Part shown: positions 5,371-19,899 of the stretch, piece after piece | Layout: every line of letters starts with the position of its first letter | How positions within the stretch are numbered: the stretch's first letter is position 1 | Notes under the pieces: model-generated | Seen by the model: only the letters and a program-made list of their open reading frames with translations | Told to the model about the DNA's origin: nothing | Databases searched by the model: none | Origin: a virus | Taxonomy: Duplodnaviria > Heunggongvirae > Uroviricota > Caudoviricetes | DNA: 21,069 nucleotides | Direction: 5' to 3' (one strand) | Virus record (IMG/VR): IMGVR_UViG_2630968342_000014 | Program-made: the position numbers and the translations under genes

Positions 5371-6195
5371 TCAGGCGGTGAAAGTACCAATAAAGGTTTC
5401 TGCTTTGCTGTCTTTAAATTTCTCAACAAGCAGATCACGAAATTCGTTAGCCATTTCTTCCTGCACTGCTTCCAGCTGAATAATGCGCAGAACCAGTACA
5501 GGACGATCGCCAGTGATAATGCTGAGGCGTAATTTAAACGGACGTTCTTTCAGGCCTTCAAACGGAACGCATTTAAATTCAAATGCCACTGGCATAATGT
5601 CTTTGGTCTTCGCTTCGACAGACTCCATCAGGGAGCGTTTGCCGCTGAAGTCATTATCTTCAAAATCAGCGGTCTGGTTTGCTTCAATCGTGATTTTACG
5701 GACTACCGCAGCCGCTTTTGTTGCCTTAATAGCGTCACCATTAGCATCAAAGCCCACAAGATAGTCGGCCCAGTCTTCAATCCATTCTGCCAGTGACTTC
5801 TGGGAGTTACGCTCGCCGTTAACAGACAACAGAGCAGAGAACGGTGCTGTCTTTTTCAGTTTGAGTGTGGCGGTGTTATCTGCGTGACCTGGTTCACCAA
5901 TAGTACCCAGGTTAAGCACACTGACGGCACGCATATTATCAGCATCGATAAAGCAGCGGGTGCCTTCATCTGCAAGATCTTTAGAATAACGGGTAAAGTC
6001 ATCGATGCTGGCAGTGGAAAGCGCACCACGGAAACGGAAGCGATTTAAATTAAATTTTTCCAGATCATGAATGCGGAAATTCTCAGGCAATGCCACAGCA
6101 TCGGCACCAATCTTACTGATAATTTCATTAACACCCTGAGCAGAAATAAGGGCATGGATTTGATTAATTGCGGTTGCGTCTAAGTTCTGAGACAT
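5371..6195 (-). CDS. YfdQ-like protein (DUF2303 family), function unknown
   Basis: 274-aa ORF, ATG at 6195 with GAGGA Shine-Dalgarno. Size and gene order (P-Q-R-S-T) match the CPS-53 yfdQ position; family name from memory. Confidence 0.6.
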
Positions 6196-6260: not shown

Positions 6261-6623
6261 TTAATGACCTGCTGCGCGGAGTTTTCCGTCAGGTTCACCG
6301 GCAAGAGTCAGTAATTGTCCCTGGTCTTCCTGCAGAATAGTCAGGCGACCACCGCGATTGACATACATCGGCGTTTCGGTGGTGTCTTCTTCGGAAATTT
6401 TCCCGCGGTTAGTCGGACGAACATATGAGAGTTTGTGTTTTATTTTCACACGGTTCTCATCAAACGGTTCGATTTCCAGGTTGAGCGAGACCTTCCCTTT
6501 GGTTTTCGTGTTCATCACACCTGAAGCGACTTCACTGAGAACAGCGCCGATTTTGGTTTCAAATACGCCGCCGTCCAGCTCCCCGATAAATGCCTGCACA
6601 TCAGTACTGCGTTCGCTAGCCAT
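6261..6623 (-). CDS. YfdP-like small protein (120 aa), first gene of the early-left operon
   Basis: The track ORF 6261-6809 begins at a TTG with an implausible Cys/Arg-rich extension. The in-frame ATG giving MASERSTDVQAFIGELDGG... is preceded by GAGGAG Shine-Dalgarno. Start coordinate derived from ORF-track frame arithmetic (codon 63 of the track ORF). Confidence 0.6.
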   Translation of the reverse strand: MASERSTDVQAFIGELDGGVFETKIGAVLSEVASGVMNTKTKGKVSLNLEIEPFDENRVKIKHKLSYVRPTNRGKISEEDTTETPMYVNRGGRLTILQEDQGQLLTLAGEPDGKLRAAGH

Positions 6624-6760
6624 TTTGCTGCTCCTCATCATATCGACCCTGCAAGGTCGGTTGGTTTCTCCACAAAACAGAGAAGAACACCTGCGGTGGC
6701 AGCCGCCCGGATGGATTGGGTTATGAGCCCGTCGTCCGGTGATGCTCTTCTCTGTTTTGT

Positions 6761-6806
6761 AAAAAGAGCGGTACCAGCCGGAAGCAAGTGTACAAACTGG
6801 TACCGC
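6761..6806 (-). terminator. Candidate intrinsic terminator in the leader of the early-left operon (tL-like)
   Basis: Minus-strand RNA: GCGGUACCAG, 19-nt loop, CUGGUACCGC, then UCUUUUUAC. Perfect 10-bp GC-rich stem (plus 6768-6777 and 6797-6806) followed by a U-tract. The plus orientation has no U-tract. Confidence 0.45.
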
Positions 6807-7094
6807 CAAAGCAGTGGCTGTTGTGGTGACCGGTGCTGATCTCCGGCTTGCGGTTATTTCAGACTCTCACGGGCGTTTAATTGCCCCGCCGAACAGCTCT
6901 TTTCCGCAATAGCTGCAATGTCTTTCGCGCATCAGCCTGCGCATTCACCACAACTCTAAGGATTCTCTCTGGTTGAAAATACTTAGCTGTTATGTGCCTG
7001 CTTTTAGCCACATCAGGCGAGGTGGACCTGGTTATTCCCCAACAACAAGGATTCGGTTAATCTGGTTATCCCCAACAACGCAAAAGGAAAAGAA

Positions 7095-7529
7095 ATGTCC
7101 GGTAATATCTACACGTTGTACAAATCCCACTGTGAAAATGTTGGAAAGTATCGGGGCATTGAAATCAGTGGGATAGTGTCATCAGTCGAAATAAGCAAAG
7201 TGGAATCAAGGGCAACATTACTTACTCTTCTGGATCTTGTCTTACATGAGCACCGGAAGAAATTCGGCACTCCCTATAATCAGTTGAATGGGAAAAAGGC
7301 TCTGGTTCACCTTATTCTGATGAAGCATCACTGGATGCCAAAACAGATTAATGAGATGAAATTTGATGAACTTCTTCTTTCAATTCAGGATGAACTCACA
7401 CTTGATAAAATAAGCGTAACCGCCCAGAAATTTTTAGATTATCGAGACTGGAGATCACAAATTCATCACTTTGATGATTTTGACGAAAATGAATGGGATC
7501 CTAATTTGTCTGCACAATATCTAAAGTAA
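7095..7529 (+). CDS. Hypothetical accessory protein (144 aa), no recognisable domain
   Basis: ATG at 7095 with AAAAGGAAAAG Shine-Dalgarno. Visibly more AT-rich than flanking phage genes. Opposite orientation to the surrounding early-left genes; two 18-19-bp direct repeats lie just upstream and a plus-strand intrinsic terminator lies downstream. Confidence 0.55.
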   Translation: MSGNIYTLYKSHCENVGKYRGIEISGIVSSVEISKVESRATLLTLLDLVLHEHRKKFGTPYNQLNGKKALVHLILMKHHWMPKQINEMKFDELLLSIQDELTLDKISVTAQKFLDYRDWRSQIHHFDDFDENEWDPNLSAQYLK

Positions 7530-7765
7530 CATCCTGTGATAAAACCGTGATTTCCTGATCCAGTTTTTTTAAGGAGTCTATTGTTTCCTGTCGATAAGAC
7601 AGCACTTCACGAAGCTGGTTTATAGCTGCCAGCTTCTTTGTCATCCACTCATAAATTTACTCATCTGTGTAGCTAGGCGCGACGATTTTGGGTTCTGTTT
7701 TGTGCATTTCACACCTCCTCAAGTTATCAGTTACTTGTTGATGGGGACCAGATTGTTAAAGAGCT

Positions 7766-7789
7766 AAGCGTCCTGTAGGGCGCTTTTTT
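7766..7789 (+). terminator. Intrinsic terminator downstream of the 144-aa gene
   Basis: AAGCGTCC-TGTA-GGGCGCTT followed by TTTTTTG: 8-bp stem including one G-U pair, tetraloop, T-run. Oriented for plus-strand transcripts only. Confidence 0.5.
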
Positions 7790-7874
7790 GTTGCTAACGA
7801 ATCATCCTGGACTTCATATGCCCCAGGCGGCTACTTCGTGGGTGTCCTGCCTGTTCGTTGTCTTAACACCTTTA

Positions 7875-7915
7875 AGTTGTAATTTAGTTGTGGTTTTGAA
7901 TGTTGTCAACAACTT
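7875..7915 (-). promoter_or_regulatory. PL-like leftward promoter overlapped by OL-like operator motifs
   Basis: On the minus strand: TTGACA (complement of 7904-7909), 17-bp spacer, TAAATT (complement of 7881-7886). Flanked and overlapped by the operator motifs found between cI and cro (ACAACTTTATG at 7909-7919 and 9562-9572; AGTTGTGG at 7886-7893 and 9595-9602). Confidence 0.5.
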
Positions 7916-7972
7916 TATGTGGTTTGAACGAGTAGCCAAGGAGTGCAAGGATTATCAAAAAAAGGAGGTTGT

Positions 7973-8863
7973 ATGGAAGACGCGCTTTACGCTTTTAATT
8001 ACACACAGAACCGGGACAAGTTATTTGCTAACTTGATTAGCATCATTGATGGAATCATTGCAGATGGAGTTGTCCGTGAAGAGGAGGTTCTTTACTTAGA
8101 TACATGGTTACTTGAAGCAAAGCAGATTATCAATAATGGAGTTATAAAAAGTCTATCTGCTCGGGTGTCGGATATTCTTGCGGATGGAATAATCACATCA
8201 GAAGAACGTGATGACCTTAAAAATAGCCTTCTCCAAATACAGAGGGAAATTCTTGATATCCCTGAAATTGATTTTTACTCCAAGGATGTAGATGTCCATT
8301 TACTTAATGGACTATGTAAAGGATTAATTGCTGATCGGAACTTAACTCAAGAAGAAATAAGATATCTTAATTGGTGGCTTGAGCAAAATGGAGCTTTGAA
8401 GAACAACTACCCAGGAAAAAAACTTTATGCACTTGTAAAGGAAATTCTTAAAGATGGTGTTATTACTGAAGATGAGAGTTTAACTCTACATAAGGCATTA
8501 GTAGACTTCACAGGATGTGACTTGGAAAGTGGGGTGGTGGATGGTTTGGCGACCAGGCTGCCTATTGATGTAGGGGCTTCGATAGAGTTAGAGGGTAAAA
8601 CCTATTGTCTTACAGGCACTTTTGTTGCAGGAAAGAGAGCCGTAGTTGAAAATTTGATTAAAAATGCTGGTGGGAACATCAGTAGTGGAATTACTCAAAA
8701 GTTGGATTTTTTAGTAATTGGGACGCTTTCCTCCCGTGATTGGAAATTCTCTAGTCACGGAAGGAAGATCGAAAAGGCTATATCTTATAGGGATGATAAT
8801 GGTGCAAAACTTAAAATTATTTCTGAAGAAATGCTTTTCGATGCATTACCAAGTTCGCGATGA
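7973..8863 (+). CDS. BRCT-domain protein with four N-terminal ~40-aa helical repeats (accessory gene)
   Basis: The track ORF starts at GTG 7943, but the ATG at 7973 has an AAAGGAGG Shine-Dalgarno. C-terminus (GKTYCLTGTFVAGKRAVVENLIKNAGGNISSGITQKLDFLVIGT...KLKIISEEMLFDAL) has the pattern of a BRCT domain like the C-terminus of NAD-dependent DNA ligase. N-terminal half carries four repeats of the form L-x-x-ILADG-x-IT-x-EE-x-x-L. AT-rich. The 3' end overlaps the cI 3' end. Confidence 0.7.
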   Translation: MEDALYAFNYTQNRDKLFANLISIIDGIIADGVVREEEVLYLDTWLLEAKQIINNGVIKSLSARVSDILADGIITSEERDDLKNSLLQIQREILDIPEIDFYSKDVDVHLLNGLCKGLIADRNLTQEEIRYLNWWLEQNGALKNNYPGKKLYALVKEILKDGVITEDESLTLHKALVDFTGCDLESGVVDGLATRLPIDVGASIELEGKTYCLTGTFVAGKRAVVENLIKNAGGNISSGITQKLDFLVIGTLSSRDWKFSSHGRKIEKAISYRDDNGAKLKIISEEMLFDALPSSR

Positions 8864-9532
8864 CCAGAATACCCTACCTATAACATGAATTCTGGCTCGT
8901 CTATCTTCAAAGGTGAGTATTTCATCTGGGTACTCATCTTTGTTGAAGCTTCTAAGAATCAAGCCACCGTCAGGTAAGTTGATAAGTATTTTAACCCTTA
9001 GCAATACACCATCTCGTACGGCATAAAGATCGCCATCACGAATAGGAACGGTTTGAGAAATATCAACGGCAACAAGATCTCCATTATTGAGAACCGGTAA
9101 TAAACTGTTCCCCCATATTTGTACGATCTTGGCATTAGATGCACATACGCCAGATTTTCTCAAATCTGCTCTTCTTAACGGAAACCAGTCAATAGCTGAT
9201 TCAACTATTTCAGCCAGACATCCGTTACCTGCCGATAACTCGACATCTAAAACAGGAATGTTTACGAAAATATCGGGGTCTAATGCGGTGCTTTCTGCTT
9301 CTTTTACAACAAGATCAGGTATGGATGCGTTGTCTTCAATACCAAGTTGTAACCACTTTTGTGATACACCTAAAACTTTTGCAATTTCTTTAATTTTGCG
9401 CGGTTGTAGAGTTTCGCCATTCTCTATTTTGGCTACAGATTGTTGTGAAAGTCCAATTTTTTCAGCTAGTTGAGCTTGGCTCATGCCAGCTTTCTCTCTA
9501 CCTATCTTTAATCGTTCTGCCAGTGTTTTCAC
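8846..9532 (-). CDS. cI: cI-like prophage repressor (HTH_XRE N-terminus, S24 LexA-like autopeptidase C-terminus)
   Basis: N-terminal XRE-type HTH (LAERLKIGREKAGMSQAQLAEKIGLSQQSVAKIENGE). Probable Ala-Gly cleavage site (ELSAGNG). Catalytic Ser (WGNSLLP) and Lys (LLRVKIL) in the C-terminal domain. GTG start at 9532 with AGAGGGA Shine-Dalgarno. Divergent from a Cro-like gene. Confidence 0.9.
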   Translation of the reverse strand: MKTLAERLKIGREKAGMSQAQLAEKIGLSQQSVAKIENGETLQPRKIKEIAKVLGVSQKWLQLGIEDNASIPDLVVKEAESTALDPDIFVNIPVLDVELSAGNGCLAEIVESAIDWFPLRRADLRKSGVCASNAKIVQIWGNSLLPVLNNGDLVAVDISQTVPIRDGDLYAVRDGVLLRVKILINLPDGGLILRSFNKDEYPDEILTFEDRRARIHVIGRVFWSSRTW

Positions 9533-9559
9533 AACATATCCCTCTCTTTTTTGATGAGG

Positions 9560-9645
9560 TTACAACTTTATGTTTTAGCTTTCCAACATCTAAAAGTTGT
9601 GGTAAAAGTTGTTAATGTTGTATTCTTGCAGCTCGTAACAACTTA
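9560..9645. promoter_or_regulatory. OR-like operator/promoter region between cI and cro (divergent promoters)
   Basis: 136-bp intergenic region with at least four copies of the half-site ACAACTT/AAGTTGT in both orientations (9562, 9594, 9606, 9638). The same motifs recur near 7870-7920. Confidence 0.6.
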
Positions 9646-9667
9646 ACTACCAAAAAAGGAGAAAGCT

Positions 9668-9916
9668 ATGACACCTGAGCAATTAGCCTTATCGGAGGCA
9701 ATCGCTCTGGCTGGTGGTCAATCAGAATTGGCTCGGAAGCTCACAGCCAGCAGCGGTCATTTAGTAAAGCAACAACATGTCTGGAACTGGTTGAACAGAG
9801 AAAAGCGTCCCCCTGCAAAGCTTTCGATATTCATTGAAAAGACCACTGGCATATCAAAAGAAAAATTACGTCCAGATATTTTTCAAAAGATTAAAGATTC
9901 ATCAGATGAAAAGTAA
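9668..9916 (+). CDS. cro: Cro-like / YdaS-like small HTH regulator
   Basis: 82-aa ORF divergent from cI. ATG at 9668 with AAAAAGGAGAAAG Shine-Dalgarno. HTH-like segment (GGQSELARKLTASSGHLVKQ). First gene of the rightward operon. Confidence 0.65.
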   Translation: MTPEQLALSEAIALAGGQSELARKLTASSGHLVKQQHVWNWLNREKRPPAKLSIFIEKTTGISKEKLRPDIFQKIKDSSDEK

Positions 9917-10496
9917 CCACAGTTTTAAGGAGATAGCCGTGGGTAAGCATCACTGGAAAATAGAAAAACAGCCTGAGTGGTACGTGAAAGCTGTCAGAAA
10001 AACTATCGCGGCGTTGCCGGGGGGTTACGCTGAAGCCGCTGACTGGCTGGATGTAACAGAGAACGCTTTATTCAATCGCCTTCGTGCCGATGGCGATCAG
10101 ATTTTCCCGCTGGGATGGGCAATGATTTTACAACGTGCTGGTGGAACTCACTTCATTGCTGACGCTGTGGCGCAGTCTGCAAATGGCGTCTTTGTGTCTC
10201 TTCCTGACGTCGAGGATGTGGACAACGCCGATATTAACCAGCGTCTGCTGGAAGTCATTGAACAGATCGGCAGTTATTCCAGACAGATTCGTTCAGCAAT
10301 CGAAGACGGTGTAGTGGAACCGCATGAGAAGACAGCAATTAACGACGAGCTGTACCTCTCAATTTCGAAGCTCCAGGAGCATGCAGCACTGGTCTACAAA
10401 ATCTTCTGCGCTCCAGAAAATAGTAACGCCCGCGAGTGTGCAGCTCCGGGCGTCGTGGCGTCGATTGCTTCTGGTTGTGGAGAAACTAACGCATGA
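9906..10496 (+). CDS. CII-like regulatory protein (YdaT / phage CP76-type, by position and size)
   Basis: The track ORF starts at TTG 9834; the in-frame ATG at 9906 (MKSNHSFKEIAVGK...) overlaps the cro-like stop. About 196 aa. Immediately downstream of cro as in YdaS/YdaT-type immunity modules. Family assignment from memory. Confidence 0.5.
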   Translation: MKSNHSFKEIAVGKHHWKIEKQPEWYVKAVRKTIAALPGGYAEAADWLDVTENALFNRLRADGDQIFPLGWAMILQRAGGTHFIADAVAQSANGVFVSLPDVEDVDNADINQRLLEVIEQIGSYSRQIRSAIEDGVVEPHEKTAINDELYLSISKLQEHAALVYKIFCAPENSNARECAAPGVVASIASGCGETNA

Positions 10497-10641
10497 ATAG
10501 TTTAACGGCAAATAACCGTTTGTCGCAACAGCTGGTGGTCAGCGTCGCTGAACACCTGTTGTTACGGCATGAATGCAGATTACCAAATCACCTGGCTGTA
10601 AGTAACCACAGAGAACTTTACCTGACTGTGGGGGGCGAGTT

Positions 10642-10821
10642 GTGCAGGAACTTAACCGCTGGTTTCGTGACGGAAGAGGACTTTATGTTCATGTTATTCG
10701 TTGGGAGCCAGAAACACAGCGCGTTATCTATCTTCGCAAAGACTACCCGCATGAGTGCTTTAGTCCTTTGTGGAAATTCAGGCGTGATTTTGTTGAGTGT
10801 GAAGGACCACCAGCATATTGA
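10642..10821 (+). CDS. Possible small ORF (59 aa, GTG start), not in the ORF track
   Basis: Hand translation: VQELNRWFRDGRGLYVHVIRWEPETQRVIYLRKDYPHECFSPLWKFRRDFVECEGPPAY, read from GTG at 10642 with a G-rich Shine-Dalgarno (GGGGGG at 10630-10635). Lies in a 600-bp gap that the track covers only with an implausible N-terminal extension of the rha ORF. Confidence 0.3.
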   Translation: MQELNRWFRDGRGLYVHVIRWEPETQRVIYLRKDYPHECFSPLWKFRRDFVECEGPPAY

Positions 10822-10907
10822 TTCTGCCATTTCGGGACGTTACACTGTCTCTGCACCTTATAAAGCGGGTGCCGGGATTGGCGTCCTGAAATTGATTACT
10901 GAGCATA

Positions 10908-10928
10908 ACCGCGCTCATGCGGTTTTTT
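10908..10928 (+). terminator. Candidate intrinsic terminator (tR1-like position)
   Basis: ACCGC-GCTCAT-GCGGT followed by TTTTTT: 5-bp GC-rich stem, 6-nt loop, U-tract. The reverse strand lacks a U-tract after the stem. Confidence 0.4.
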
Positions 10929-11098
10929 CGTGTCATGAGCATTGCTACGCCCAAATTATGGTGGGGCGTACAGGGCCGACTTCGGTCGGGCCGGGTTCGG
11001 TAGTCTCCGGTAACGCCAACCCTGTACGTCTCACCACCTCTGTGATTGGCGTCCCATGTGGTGAGTTTTCTAAAAAACTGACTACCGGGGCTGTCACT

Positions 11099-11656
11099 AT
11101 GACTACTCTCCCAACCCTCTCTCAACCTGAAATTGCCATCGTTGATGGTCAGGCTGTTACATCTTCTTTGGCTGTTGCTGACTTCTTCTCTAAACGTCAT
11201 GACGATGTTCTGAAAAAGATCCGCATTTTGGATTGTTCTCCAGAGTTTTGTGCCCGCAATTTTGCGGAGACATCAATTTTGGTACGCCAGCCCAACGGCG
11301 GTACTCGCAAACTACCTTGCTATCAAATAACCCGCGATGGCTTCGCGTTCCTTGCTATGGGCTTCACGGGTAAACGTGCTGCCCAGTTCAAAGAGGCATA
11401 CATCAATGCCTTTAACCAGATGGAGAAACAGCTTTCAAATCCCTCTGTACTGAGCGACGTTGCACATAACGCCAGCGTTCTCTATTCCTACATTTCATCA
11501 ATTCATCAGGTCTGGCTGCAGCAGCTTTATCCCATGTTGGCAAAAGCCGAATCCCCGCTGGCTGTAAGTCTGTATGACAGCATCAACGACGCGGCGCTAC
11601 TGGCCAGTCTCATAAATTTGTCGCTGAACCCTTCAGAGGTAAGGGGGCGCAAATGA
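11099..11656 (+). CDS. rha: Rha-family phage regulatory protein
   Basis: The N-terminus from the ATG at 11099 (MTTLPTLSQPEIAIVDGQAVTSSLAVADFFSKRHDDVLKKIRIL...ITRDGFAFLAMGFTGKRAAQFKEAYINAFNQME) matches the Phage_pRha domain pattern. The track ORF 10493-11656 fuses it to an upstream extension that looks non-coding. Confidence 0.8.
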   Translation: MTTLPTLSQPEIAIVDGQAVTSSLAVADFFSKRHDDVLKKIRILDCSPEFCARNFAETSILVRQPNGGTRKLPCYQITRDGFAFLAMGFTGKRAAQFKEAYINAFNQMEKQLSNPSVLSDVAHNASVLYSYISSIHQVWLQQLYPMLAKAESPLAVSLYDSINDAALLASLINLSLNPSEVRGRK

Positions 11657-19757: not shown

Positions 19758-19875
19758 TATATATCCCGAATTATAAGAATGAATTTTTATGTGGCTGAAA
19801 ATTCTATCAAAACACTAACGCGTACGCAAAAAGTATTGTATTGTGTTAAGAGTGGTTACTTCGCCACACAACTTA

Positions 19876-19899
19876 AACCCGCCACTGAGCGGGTTTTTT
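19876..19899 (+). terminator. Intrinsic terminator (plus-strand orientation)
   Basis: AACCCGC-CACTGA-GCGGGTT followed by TTTTTTG: 7-bp stem, 6-nt loop, run of six T. The reverse orientation has only a 3-U tract. Confidence 0.6.

Follow-up and report, generated by a model that had tools for sequence, protein, structure and literature searches.

A predicted left operator-promoter and a structured leader RNA in a lambdoid prophage of Escherichia coli

What does a short intergenic region control when it repeats the operator motifs of the cI-cro spacer, and what is read from the promoter that it overlaps? This question is raised by positions 7870-7920 of IMGVR_UViG_2630968342_000014, a viral DNA stretch of 21,069 nucleotides (nt) that is called the window below. 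The window is an SOS-type lambdoid prophage of E. coli, and its backbone also occurs in e14, a cryptic prophage of K-12, and in the Shigella phages SfV, SfII, and SfIV. The initial annotation had described 7870-7920 as a second operator set for the cI repressor, overlapping a leftward promoter. Our analysis points with high probability to the same region as the predicted left operator and leftward promoter (OL/PL) of this prophage. An operator-promoter of this kind extends a well-understood scheme by a further immunity type, and the interest of the locus lies in what PL drives: 10 nt outside the flagged interval there is a widespread, unannotated structured leader RNA, accompanied by an rrn-type boxA, in phages that lack the N gene.

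Operator motifs and promoter at 7870-7920

The features on which the OL/PL prediction is built, together with their counterparts at the right operator (OR) and rightward promoter (PR), are as follows.

7881..7909, minus strand: predicted PL, with -35 TTGACA at 7909-7904, a 17-nt spacer, and -10 TAAATT at 7886-7881
7909..7923, plus strand: candidate operator OL-A, ACAACTTTATGTGGT, adjoining the upstream side of the PL -35; its first 12 nt are those of the site at 9562
7866..7880, minus strand: candidate operator OL-B, ACAACTTAAAGGTGT, directly after the PL -10 and over the inferred start; a match to ACAACTTWWWG
7885..7893, plus strand: lone half-site TAGTTGTGG, between the PL -10 and the spacer; TAGTTGT is kept in 7/7 modules
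9562..9644, sites on both strands: OR region, with full sites at 9562-9576 (+) and 9600-9586 (-); motifs kept in 7/7 modules
9608-9612 (GTTGT), 9617-9621 (GTTGT), and 9637-9644 (AACAACTT): conserved OR half-sites
9597-9602 and 9621-9626: predicted PR, with -35 TTGTGG, an 18-nt spacer, and -10 TATTCT
8846..9532, minus strand: cI repressor, with HTH_3 (Pfam, 1.4e-15) and Peptidase_S24 (1.1e-14) domains
9668..9916, plus strand: gene in the cro position, encoding a YdaS-family helix-turn-helix protein (Pfam PF15943, 7.8e-15; phrog_35, transcriptional repressor)

A word search of the 21-kb window confirmed that an 11-mer and an 8-mer occur both at 7870-7920 and in the cI-cro spacer, as had been noted at the outset. 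The 11-mer ACAACTTTATG is present in exactly two copies (7909-7919 and 9562-9572), and the match grows to the 12-mer ACAACTTTATGT, that is, ACAACTTTATG(T). The 8-mer AGTTGTGG, at 7886-7893 and 9595-9602, likewise grows to the 9-mer AGTTGTGGT (9595-9603), that is, AGTTGTGG(T), and has a third copy on the reverse strand at 6948-6955. Six of the ten copies of the heptamer AAGTTGT/ACAACTT in the 21 kb fall in the two short regions, and all four matches to ACAACTTWWWG in the window lie within them (0.19 expected). An isolated copy of ACAACTTAAA occurs far from the immunity region, in an intergenic position at 19868-19877 (+) directly before a strong terminator hairpin; this half-site is probably a chance occurrence.

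The leftward TTGACA-17-TAAATT promoter is present as first described, and with a score of 10/12 it is the best sigma-70-like match on either strand in 6500-10100 (3.6 kb); its start site would lie near 7873. For a phylogenetic footprint, seven versions of the whole immunity module with 75 to 99% identity were aligned. Two blocks, 7864-7893 (AACACCTTTAAGTTGTAATTTAGTTGTGG) and 7903-7925 (TGTCAACAACTTTATGTGGTTTG), are nearly invariant over the seven modules, with 7903-7925 kept in all of them, while the 8 to 10 nt between the blocks (7894-7901) and the flanks vary. In the seven modules, PL retains its -35 and its 17-nt spacing and has TAAATT or TAGATT as the -10, and OL-B is conserved in 7/7 with the same geometry as the site at 9586-9600. 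One further candidate half-site, GTTGT at 7902-7906, was rejected: it is not conserved in relatives and is merely part of the -35 region. At the right side, the sites overlap the PR -35, the spacer, the -10, and +5 to +12, and the 12-mer lies over the region of the repressor-maintenance promoter (PRM); the PR -10 is TATAAT in the six aligned modules other than that of the window. The operators are inherited with cI as one module: SfIV, SfV, and e14 have another cI and their own operators, and at the equivalent spot they carry TTGACA-16-CATAAT overlapped by GGTACA repeats, which recur in their own cI-cro spacers.

The repressor itself indicates what the sites should look like. The N-terminal 64 residues of cI align without gaps to residues 2 to 65 of the 434 repressor (PDB 1PER/2OR1, E = 8e-14). 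Gln-Gln-Ser (QQS) is kept at the start of the recognition helix. In solved 434 operator complexes, those glutamines read the ACAA half-site, and the 434-like domain of cI predicts the same half-site here. Four sites in the two regions follow ACAA-N7-TTGT (15 bp) with one mismatch each, in the second half-site: 7909-7923 (+), which is OL-A, 7880-7866 (-), 9562-9576 (+), and 9600-9586 (-). Most likely, the repressor would recognize ACAA(C) half-sites arranged as 15-bp sites of this form. Since motifs and promoter are kept while the spacers drift, and since the QQS helix is kept as well, OL/PL is well supported. What stands of the original proposal, namely, that the repressor has a second group of operators and that these overlap a PL-like promoter, is thus carried by the motifs, the footprint, the linkage to cI, and the 434-like domain; the GTTGT at 7902 falls away.

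The immunity module occupies 7862-9933, with borders at 7861 and 9934 defined by the end and the resumption of homology to SfIV and SfV. On the left side, with yfdP/yfdQ-type early-left genes, identity to SfIV is 94 to 95% up to 7861; on the right side, homology to SfIV/SfV picks up again at 9934 with ymfL and the replication genes. Among 50,697 sequenced-phage records, 7862-9933 has no counterpart except for an 80-nt block at its left edge. The whole module is found in 48 complete E. coli genomes, and an 85%-identical variant with the same motifs is found in 25 others. By its absence from the sequenced-phage collection, the immunity type is new, and the predicted OL/PL itself is ordinary.

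Two other explanations of the shared motifs have to be weighed, one of which involves a gene and a possible promoter on the other side of OL-A.

7973..8863, plus strand: BRCT-domain gene, 296 amino acids (aa), between OL and cI (Pfam BRCT, 1.3e-6; phrog_3989, 1.5e-128)
7923..7952, plus strand: possible PRM-like rightward promoter for the BRCT gene, TTTGAA ... TGcAAGGAT, adjoining OL-A

The shared words could be chance matches in AT-rich intergenic DNA, and the longest of them (12 nt) is the weaker evidence when taken alone, because A-runs are present in both regions and 8 of 1,000 shuffles reach that length. However, the two regions have 18 distinct 8-mers in common versus 1.7 expected, a number that none of 1,000 dinucleotide shuffles reaches; none of 100 shuffles reaches the four ACAACTTWWWG matches; and the motifs are selectively kept in diverged modules. 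These tests already contradict chance, to which we assign a negligible probability. The other explanation starts from the resemblance of 7909-7968 (+) to 9600-9541 (-), the stretch that runs from the OR site through PRM to the cI leader: 37 of 60 positions (62%) are identical without gaps, a level that among 42,018 positions in the window is reached only by 7909-7968 and the self-match. The distance from ACAAC to ATCAAAAAA-GGAGG is 45 nt in both stretches, the operator adjoins a weak -35 in both (TTTGAA; TTGGAA at OR), and GCAAGGAT and the spacings are conserved in the seven modules. By this resemblance, transcription of the BRCT gene may start at a PRM-like promoter and depend on cI, which would make the gene a lysogen-expressed accessory gene. 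If 7909-7923 mainly serves that promoter, whether cI activates or represses it, the region would be a divergent control region and not simply OL/PL. Yet the candidate -35 and -10 are weak (~7/12), the promoter scan lists no plus-strand site there, and BRCT transcription would collide with that of cI, on which the gene converges with an 18-bp overlap of the 3' ends and no clear terminator between. Such a promoter would also be compatible with PL, and the sites at 7866-7893 overlap the leftward promoter only. We judge a mainly rightward role for 7909-7923 to be less likely than not.

The BRCT gene is kept in the modules of 75 to 86% identity, and in one related prophage (L005) it is reduced to a fused 5'/3' remnant. 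Its product has a weak match to the PADLOC candidate defense family PDC-S48 (2.4e-7).

Several observations weigh against the OL/PL prediction. Only four of the nine ACAAC copies have a recognizable second half-site, the other five being conserved with no clear partner; the site spacing is N7 rather than the N6 of 434, and the operator boundaries are provisional; the sequence by itself does not distinguish ACAA-N7-TTGT from an 18-bp ACAAC-N8-GTTGG arrangement or from direct repeats; and the PL -10 matches at only 4/6 positions. Taking these points into account, we still consider it highly probable that 7870-7920 is the OL/PL of this prophage. Bound repressor would then shut PL, and cleavage of the repressor after DNA damage would open it.

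A structured leader RNA and boxA behind PL

The region that would be transcribed first from PL contains three elements.

7796..7859, minus strand: structured leader RNA, 64 nt, about 15 nt after the inferred PL start (covariation; covariance model R1, 88 bits)
7766..7785: GC-rich hairpin; on the plus strand an intrinsic terminator (then TTTTTT) facing PL, on the minus strand located between the leader RNA and boxA
7752..7764, minus strand: boxA, GCTCTTTAACAAT, 1 nt after the hairpin; the only exact copy in the window

The predicted fold of the leader RNA has three helices, P1 (7858-7854 with 7801-7797), P2 (7851-7849 with 7831-7829), and P3 (7827-7823 with 7810-7806). A search pattern that fixed loop positions only matched at least 120 IMG/VR stretches and 78 times in species-representative genomes; the genomic matches fall almost exclusively in Enterobacterales, among which Xenorhabdus and Photorhabdus stand out. 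Among 92 distinct sequences, compensatory changes were observed in 10 of 13 pairs, including every pair of the two 5-bp helices; at column pair 40/57, for example, there are 43 GC, 23 CG, 17 UA, and 7 AU. In the same sequences, 97.7% of the cells form pairs, versus 74% in shuffles and 18 to 50% with slid partners. The third helix (3 bp) is invariant and is therefore uninformative. No claim is made for a tertiary contact between the loops of P2 (GCC) and P3 (GGC), as these positions were fixed by the search pattern and hold no covariation information.

The covariance model built for the family (R1) scores 88 bits at the leader of the window, where it finds a single copy, and it finds exactly one copy in each of 100 further IMG/VR loci. 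Rfam 15 gave no match to the leader RNA at gathering thresholds, and with E values up to 10 over 7650-7980 it gave only chance-level matches to unrelated families; the core sequence was found in no searchable paper. The element belongs to the 65 nt left of the module border that are conserved beside many unrelated immunity modules. Carriers include SfV, SfII, SfIV, ST64B, phiNP, mEp237, mEp460, ZF40, Yersinia YeP1-3, Klebsiella and Pantoea phages, and T5-like Providencia phages. In E. coli K-12, the e14 copy lies between ymfK and ymfJ and scores 72.6 bits; it is located at 6110-6180 (-) of stretch L132, corresponding to ~1,202,109-1,202,179 of NC_000913.3, where no noncoding RNA is annotated in MG1655 RefSeq.

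The position of the element relative to promoters is also conserved. In about half of 101 distinct contexts, a -10 ends 13 to 24 nt before P1 (strict score, at least 9/12), usually with a near-consensus TTGAC -35. Several low-scoring contexts have TTGAC and a T-rich -10 by eye, and downstream control regions score lower. In the window, P1 starts 22 nt after the PL -10. This promoter spacing argues that the element is the 5' leader of the immediate-early transcript, which would put it in the same place as putL of phage HK022.

The boxA of the window, GCTCTTTAACAAT, is identical to that of the E. coli rrnB leader, where the same 12-mer occurs just after the rrnB boxB hairpin, and at 7764-7752, in the transcript leader, it gives a sense-strand match to the boxA consensus GCUCUUUAACAA. 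Of 139 distinct contexts, 30 have GCTCTTTA downstream of the leader RNA at varied distances of up to 120 nt, and none has it upstream or antisense; the boxA contexts include T5-like Providencia phages. A tie between boxA and the 144-aa gene that lies antisense further along was considered and rejected, as boxA is also present in 24 contexts without that gene. In a separate set of ~20% of the contexts (L007, L008, L099, L155, and others) there is no boxA, and 5 to 60 nt downstream of the leader RNA there is instead a module of the form TTAACGCGCA..AGGT..AAACGTTCCGC..GGCGAYAAGG (TTAACGCGCA...AACGTTCCGC); in L030, a comparable module precedes the leader RNA.

The path to the early-left genes

Beyond boxA, the predicted PL transcript would meet the following features before and at the early-left block.

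7501..7707, minus strand: first PL-proximal gene, phrog_1744, 68 codons with a good ribosome-binding site; its 3' end overlaps the 144-aa gene convergently
7095..7529, plus strand: 144-aa ECs1072-family gene (NCBIfam NF033230, 1.7e-46; phrog_5286; RefSeq annotation agrees)
6760..6804, minus strand: candidate terminator before the early-left genes, with a 10-bp stem and a 15-nt loop, then CUCUUUUUAC
6261..6623, minus strand: yfdP, first gene of the conserved early-left block (RefSeq annotation of an identical prophage; phrog_204)

The layout first proposed, in which a leftward transcript must cross the 144-aa gene antisense between PL and 6623, agrees with the open reading frame map, and it was incomplete: the leader RNA, the hairpin, boxA, and a broken 68-codon gene follow PL, and the BRCT gene stands between OL and cI. 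The 68-codon gene, which is intact in SfIV, has a GAA-to-TAA change at codon 17 (7659-7657) that leaves pieces of 16 and 47 codons, and the 47-aa remainder matches positions 22 to 68 of phrog_1744 (6.8e-18). The 144-aa gene has its own plus-strand terminator at 7766-7785, facing PL, and the sigma-70 scan revealed no convincing promoter for it. Just upstream of it are two direct repeats, at 7028-7046 and 7062-7079 (+), of CTGGTTAT(T)CCCCAACAAC, which could be a regulator-binding site. Expression of this gene in the lysogen and its antisense silencing during lytic growth, as suggested in the initial annotation, are plausible and remain putative. The cassette at 7026-7795, comprising the 144-aa gene, the small gene, the hairpin, and boxA, is common to SfIV and is replaced in SfV, L005, and e14.

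Further left, ~280 nt of noncoding DNA with a terminator-like hairpin lead to yfdP at 6623; the block also contains yfdQ, to which related prophages, for instance L005, add yfdR. The fold of 6735-6830 (-) has an energy of -30.6 kcal/mol (z = -3.0), and the candidate terminator at 6760-6804 is missed by strict terminator scans because its loop is long. Beside it, at 6675-6760, just upstream of yfdP, is a long inverted repeat, AAAACAGAGAAGA ... TCTTCTCTGTTTT, with its arms ~55 nt apart.

From this arrangement, we propose a course of events in which the PL transcript would start near 7873, fold into the 64-nt leader RNA (7859-7796), and present the hairpin and the rrn-identical boxA (7764-7752). 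RNA polymerase would then cross the damaged first gene, a mostly untranslated antisense stretch of ~900 nt, and the hairpin at 6804-6760 and reach yfdP at 6623. A long, poorly translated antisense passage would need resistance to Rho, and leader RNA and boxA may together make RNA polymerase termination-resistant, above all to Rho; we hold this to be only slightly less probable than its opposite. More tentatively, we speculate that the leader RNA is the first member of a second class of promoter-proximal termination-resistance RNAs, unrelated to put, and that it acts alone or as a boxB-like partner of the rrn-type boxA. In that case, it would supply the early antitermination function that is missing from the many N-less lambdoid phages of Enterobacterales (SfV, SfII, SfIV, ST64B, phiNP, e14, and others) and from some T5-like phages.

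Several results weigh against a role in antitermination. The leader RNA is not detectably related to the put elements of HK022 or HK639, and R1 detected no putR-like counterpart in the right operon, either in the window or in the 100 loci. Canonical sense-strand intrinsic terminators are not enriched within 2 kb downstream of the leader RNA (10/99 contexts), the terminator candidate of the window (6804-6760) has an atypically long loop, and boxA accompanies the leader RNA in only about a fifth of contexts. In addition, a weak -10-like TATGAT at 6636-6641 near yfdP could give some PL-independent expression.

These results feed two alternatives. The transcript may start at a real PL and stop before the early-left operon, at the hairpin, by Rho in the antisense stretch, or at 6804-6760, with the yfdP block read from its own promoter. 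The stop codon in the first gene leaves ~1 kb with little or no translation, a classic Rho substrate, and both the terminator-like hairpin and TATGAT fit such an ending. Yet in 6623-7300 there is no minus-strand promoter scoring at least 9/12 except for a weak 9/12 site inside the 144-aa gene, and the leader carries an rrn-identical boxA, a known countermeasure to Rho. In e14, SfV, and L005, the same PL-leader unit is followed by the first early-left gene within tens of nt, so PL there clearly drives the early-left operon, which is the strongest argument for the same function here; we judge an early stop to be unlikely.

The second alternative, that the leader RNA is not an antiterminator at all, has to be taken more seriously. 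It could stabilize the 5' end or serve in processing, bind a phage or host protein that has some other function, or regulate how the first gene is translated. In favor of this alternative are the lack of detectable put homology, the small number of canonical terminators downstream, and the variety of downstream partners (boxA in ~22% of contexts, the TTAACGCGCA...AACGTTCCGC module in ~20%, neither in the rest). On the other side, the element always lies close to the promoter of an immediate-early transcript, also in virulent T5-like Providencia phages; it has no linked protein gene that is conserved, and it recurs with boxA at varied distances in unrelated contexts. The phages that carry it lack N, cII, and cIII (PMC3851460). 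We incline modestly against a role other than antitermination.

If termination resistance is the function, the locus bears on an open point, namely, how N-less phages sustain early transcription, which the leader RNA and boxA may explain; a 2025 paper on a relative can only suggest put-like antitermination (PMC12315714). Antitermination by the leader RNA would be directly testable in K-12 by simple reporter fusions. The layout is also a natural test case for convergent transcription, with one accessory gene antisense to an antitermination-competent transcript and the BRCT gene behind a PRM-like copy.

Elsewhere in the window, Rfam matches to isrK (10853-10929, +, 59 bits) and to C4 antisense RNA (10954-11041, +, 82 bits) both lie inside an open reading frame annotated as a Rha-family regulator (10493-11656). 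This pair in the right arm suggests a control module in the style of P1/P7-type c4-ant.

Comparison with known systems

The closest parallel for the repressor is phage 434 (PDB 2OR1, 1RPE, and 1PER), with which the DNA-binding domain and the QQS helix are shared and whose half-site recalls the repeated motif here, which begins with ACAA. The 434 operators are 14-bp ACAA-N6-TTGT, whereas the best sites here are 15 bp (N7); helix residue 33 is Lys instead of Gln, the fifth base, C, is also conserved, and the cro gene encodes a YdaS-family protein and not a homologue of 434 Cro. By this comparison, the system would work like 434 without being a strict member of its type. In overall design it resembles lambda: a single LexA-like cleavable repressor has an operator cluster on either side of cI, and each cluster overlaps an early promoter directed away from cI. 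The sites at 7909 and 9562, which are the outermost, are identical 12-mers separated by 1.65 kb and recall the lambda OL3/OR3 pair. In contrast to lambda, the repressor and operators are unrelated in sequence, several conserved half-sites have no recognizable partner, the space between cI and OL is occupied by the BRCT accessory gene, which is convergent with cI, and there is neither an N gene nor a lambda-type nut site.

The signal behind PL shares with the rrn leader, whose boxB hairpin and boxA are bound by NusB/NusE, an identical boxA located 1 to 2 nt after a hairpin. Here, boxA stands in a phage early transcript behind an extra 64-nt structured RNA, and no boxC was recognized. The leader RNA is like HK022 putL and the HK639 putL-like RNA in its size (~65 to 70 nt), its two hairpins, its location directly after PL, and its occurrence in a lambdoid phage without N. 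A homologue of HK022 put had been suspected from two short common words in a by-eye alignment, CGAAC.GGC and CAGGAUGA, and it was rejected as a family member, as R1 misses putL, putR, and the HK639 putL-like RNA with filters off and E values up to 10. The put architecture consists of a stem I pseudoknot and stem II (PMC9378689), whereas the leader RNA here has a closing helix, P1, around two hairpins. It also differs from put in its single copy with no putR counterpart, although HK639 is annotated with a putL-like RNA only, so that putR may not be obligatory, and in its frequent association with boxA, which put does not need.

Among SfV, SfII, SfIV, and e14, the cI and cro genes differ from those of the window, the operators are of the GGTACA type, and the BRCT gene is absent; in SfV and e14, the first gene follows the leader directly, and an antisense gene is likewise absent. 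SfIV also has the 144-aa gene cassette with the hairpin and boxA, and all four share with the window the backbone and the order of cI, PL (TTGACA), the same leader RNA, and the early-left genes.

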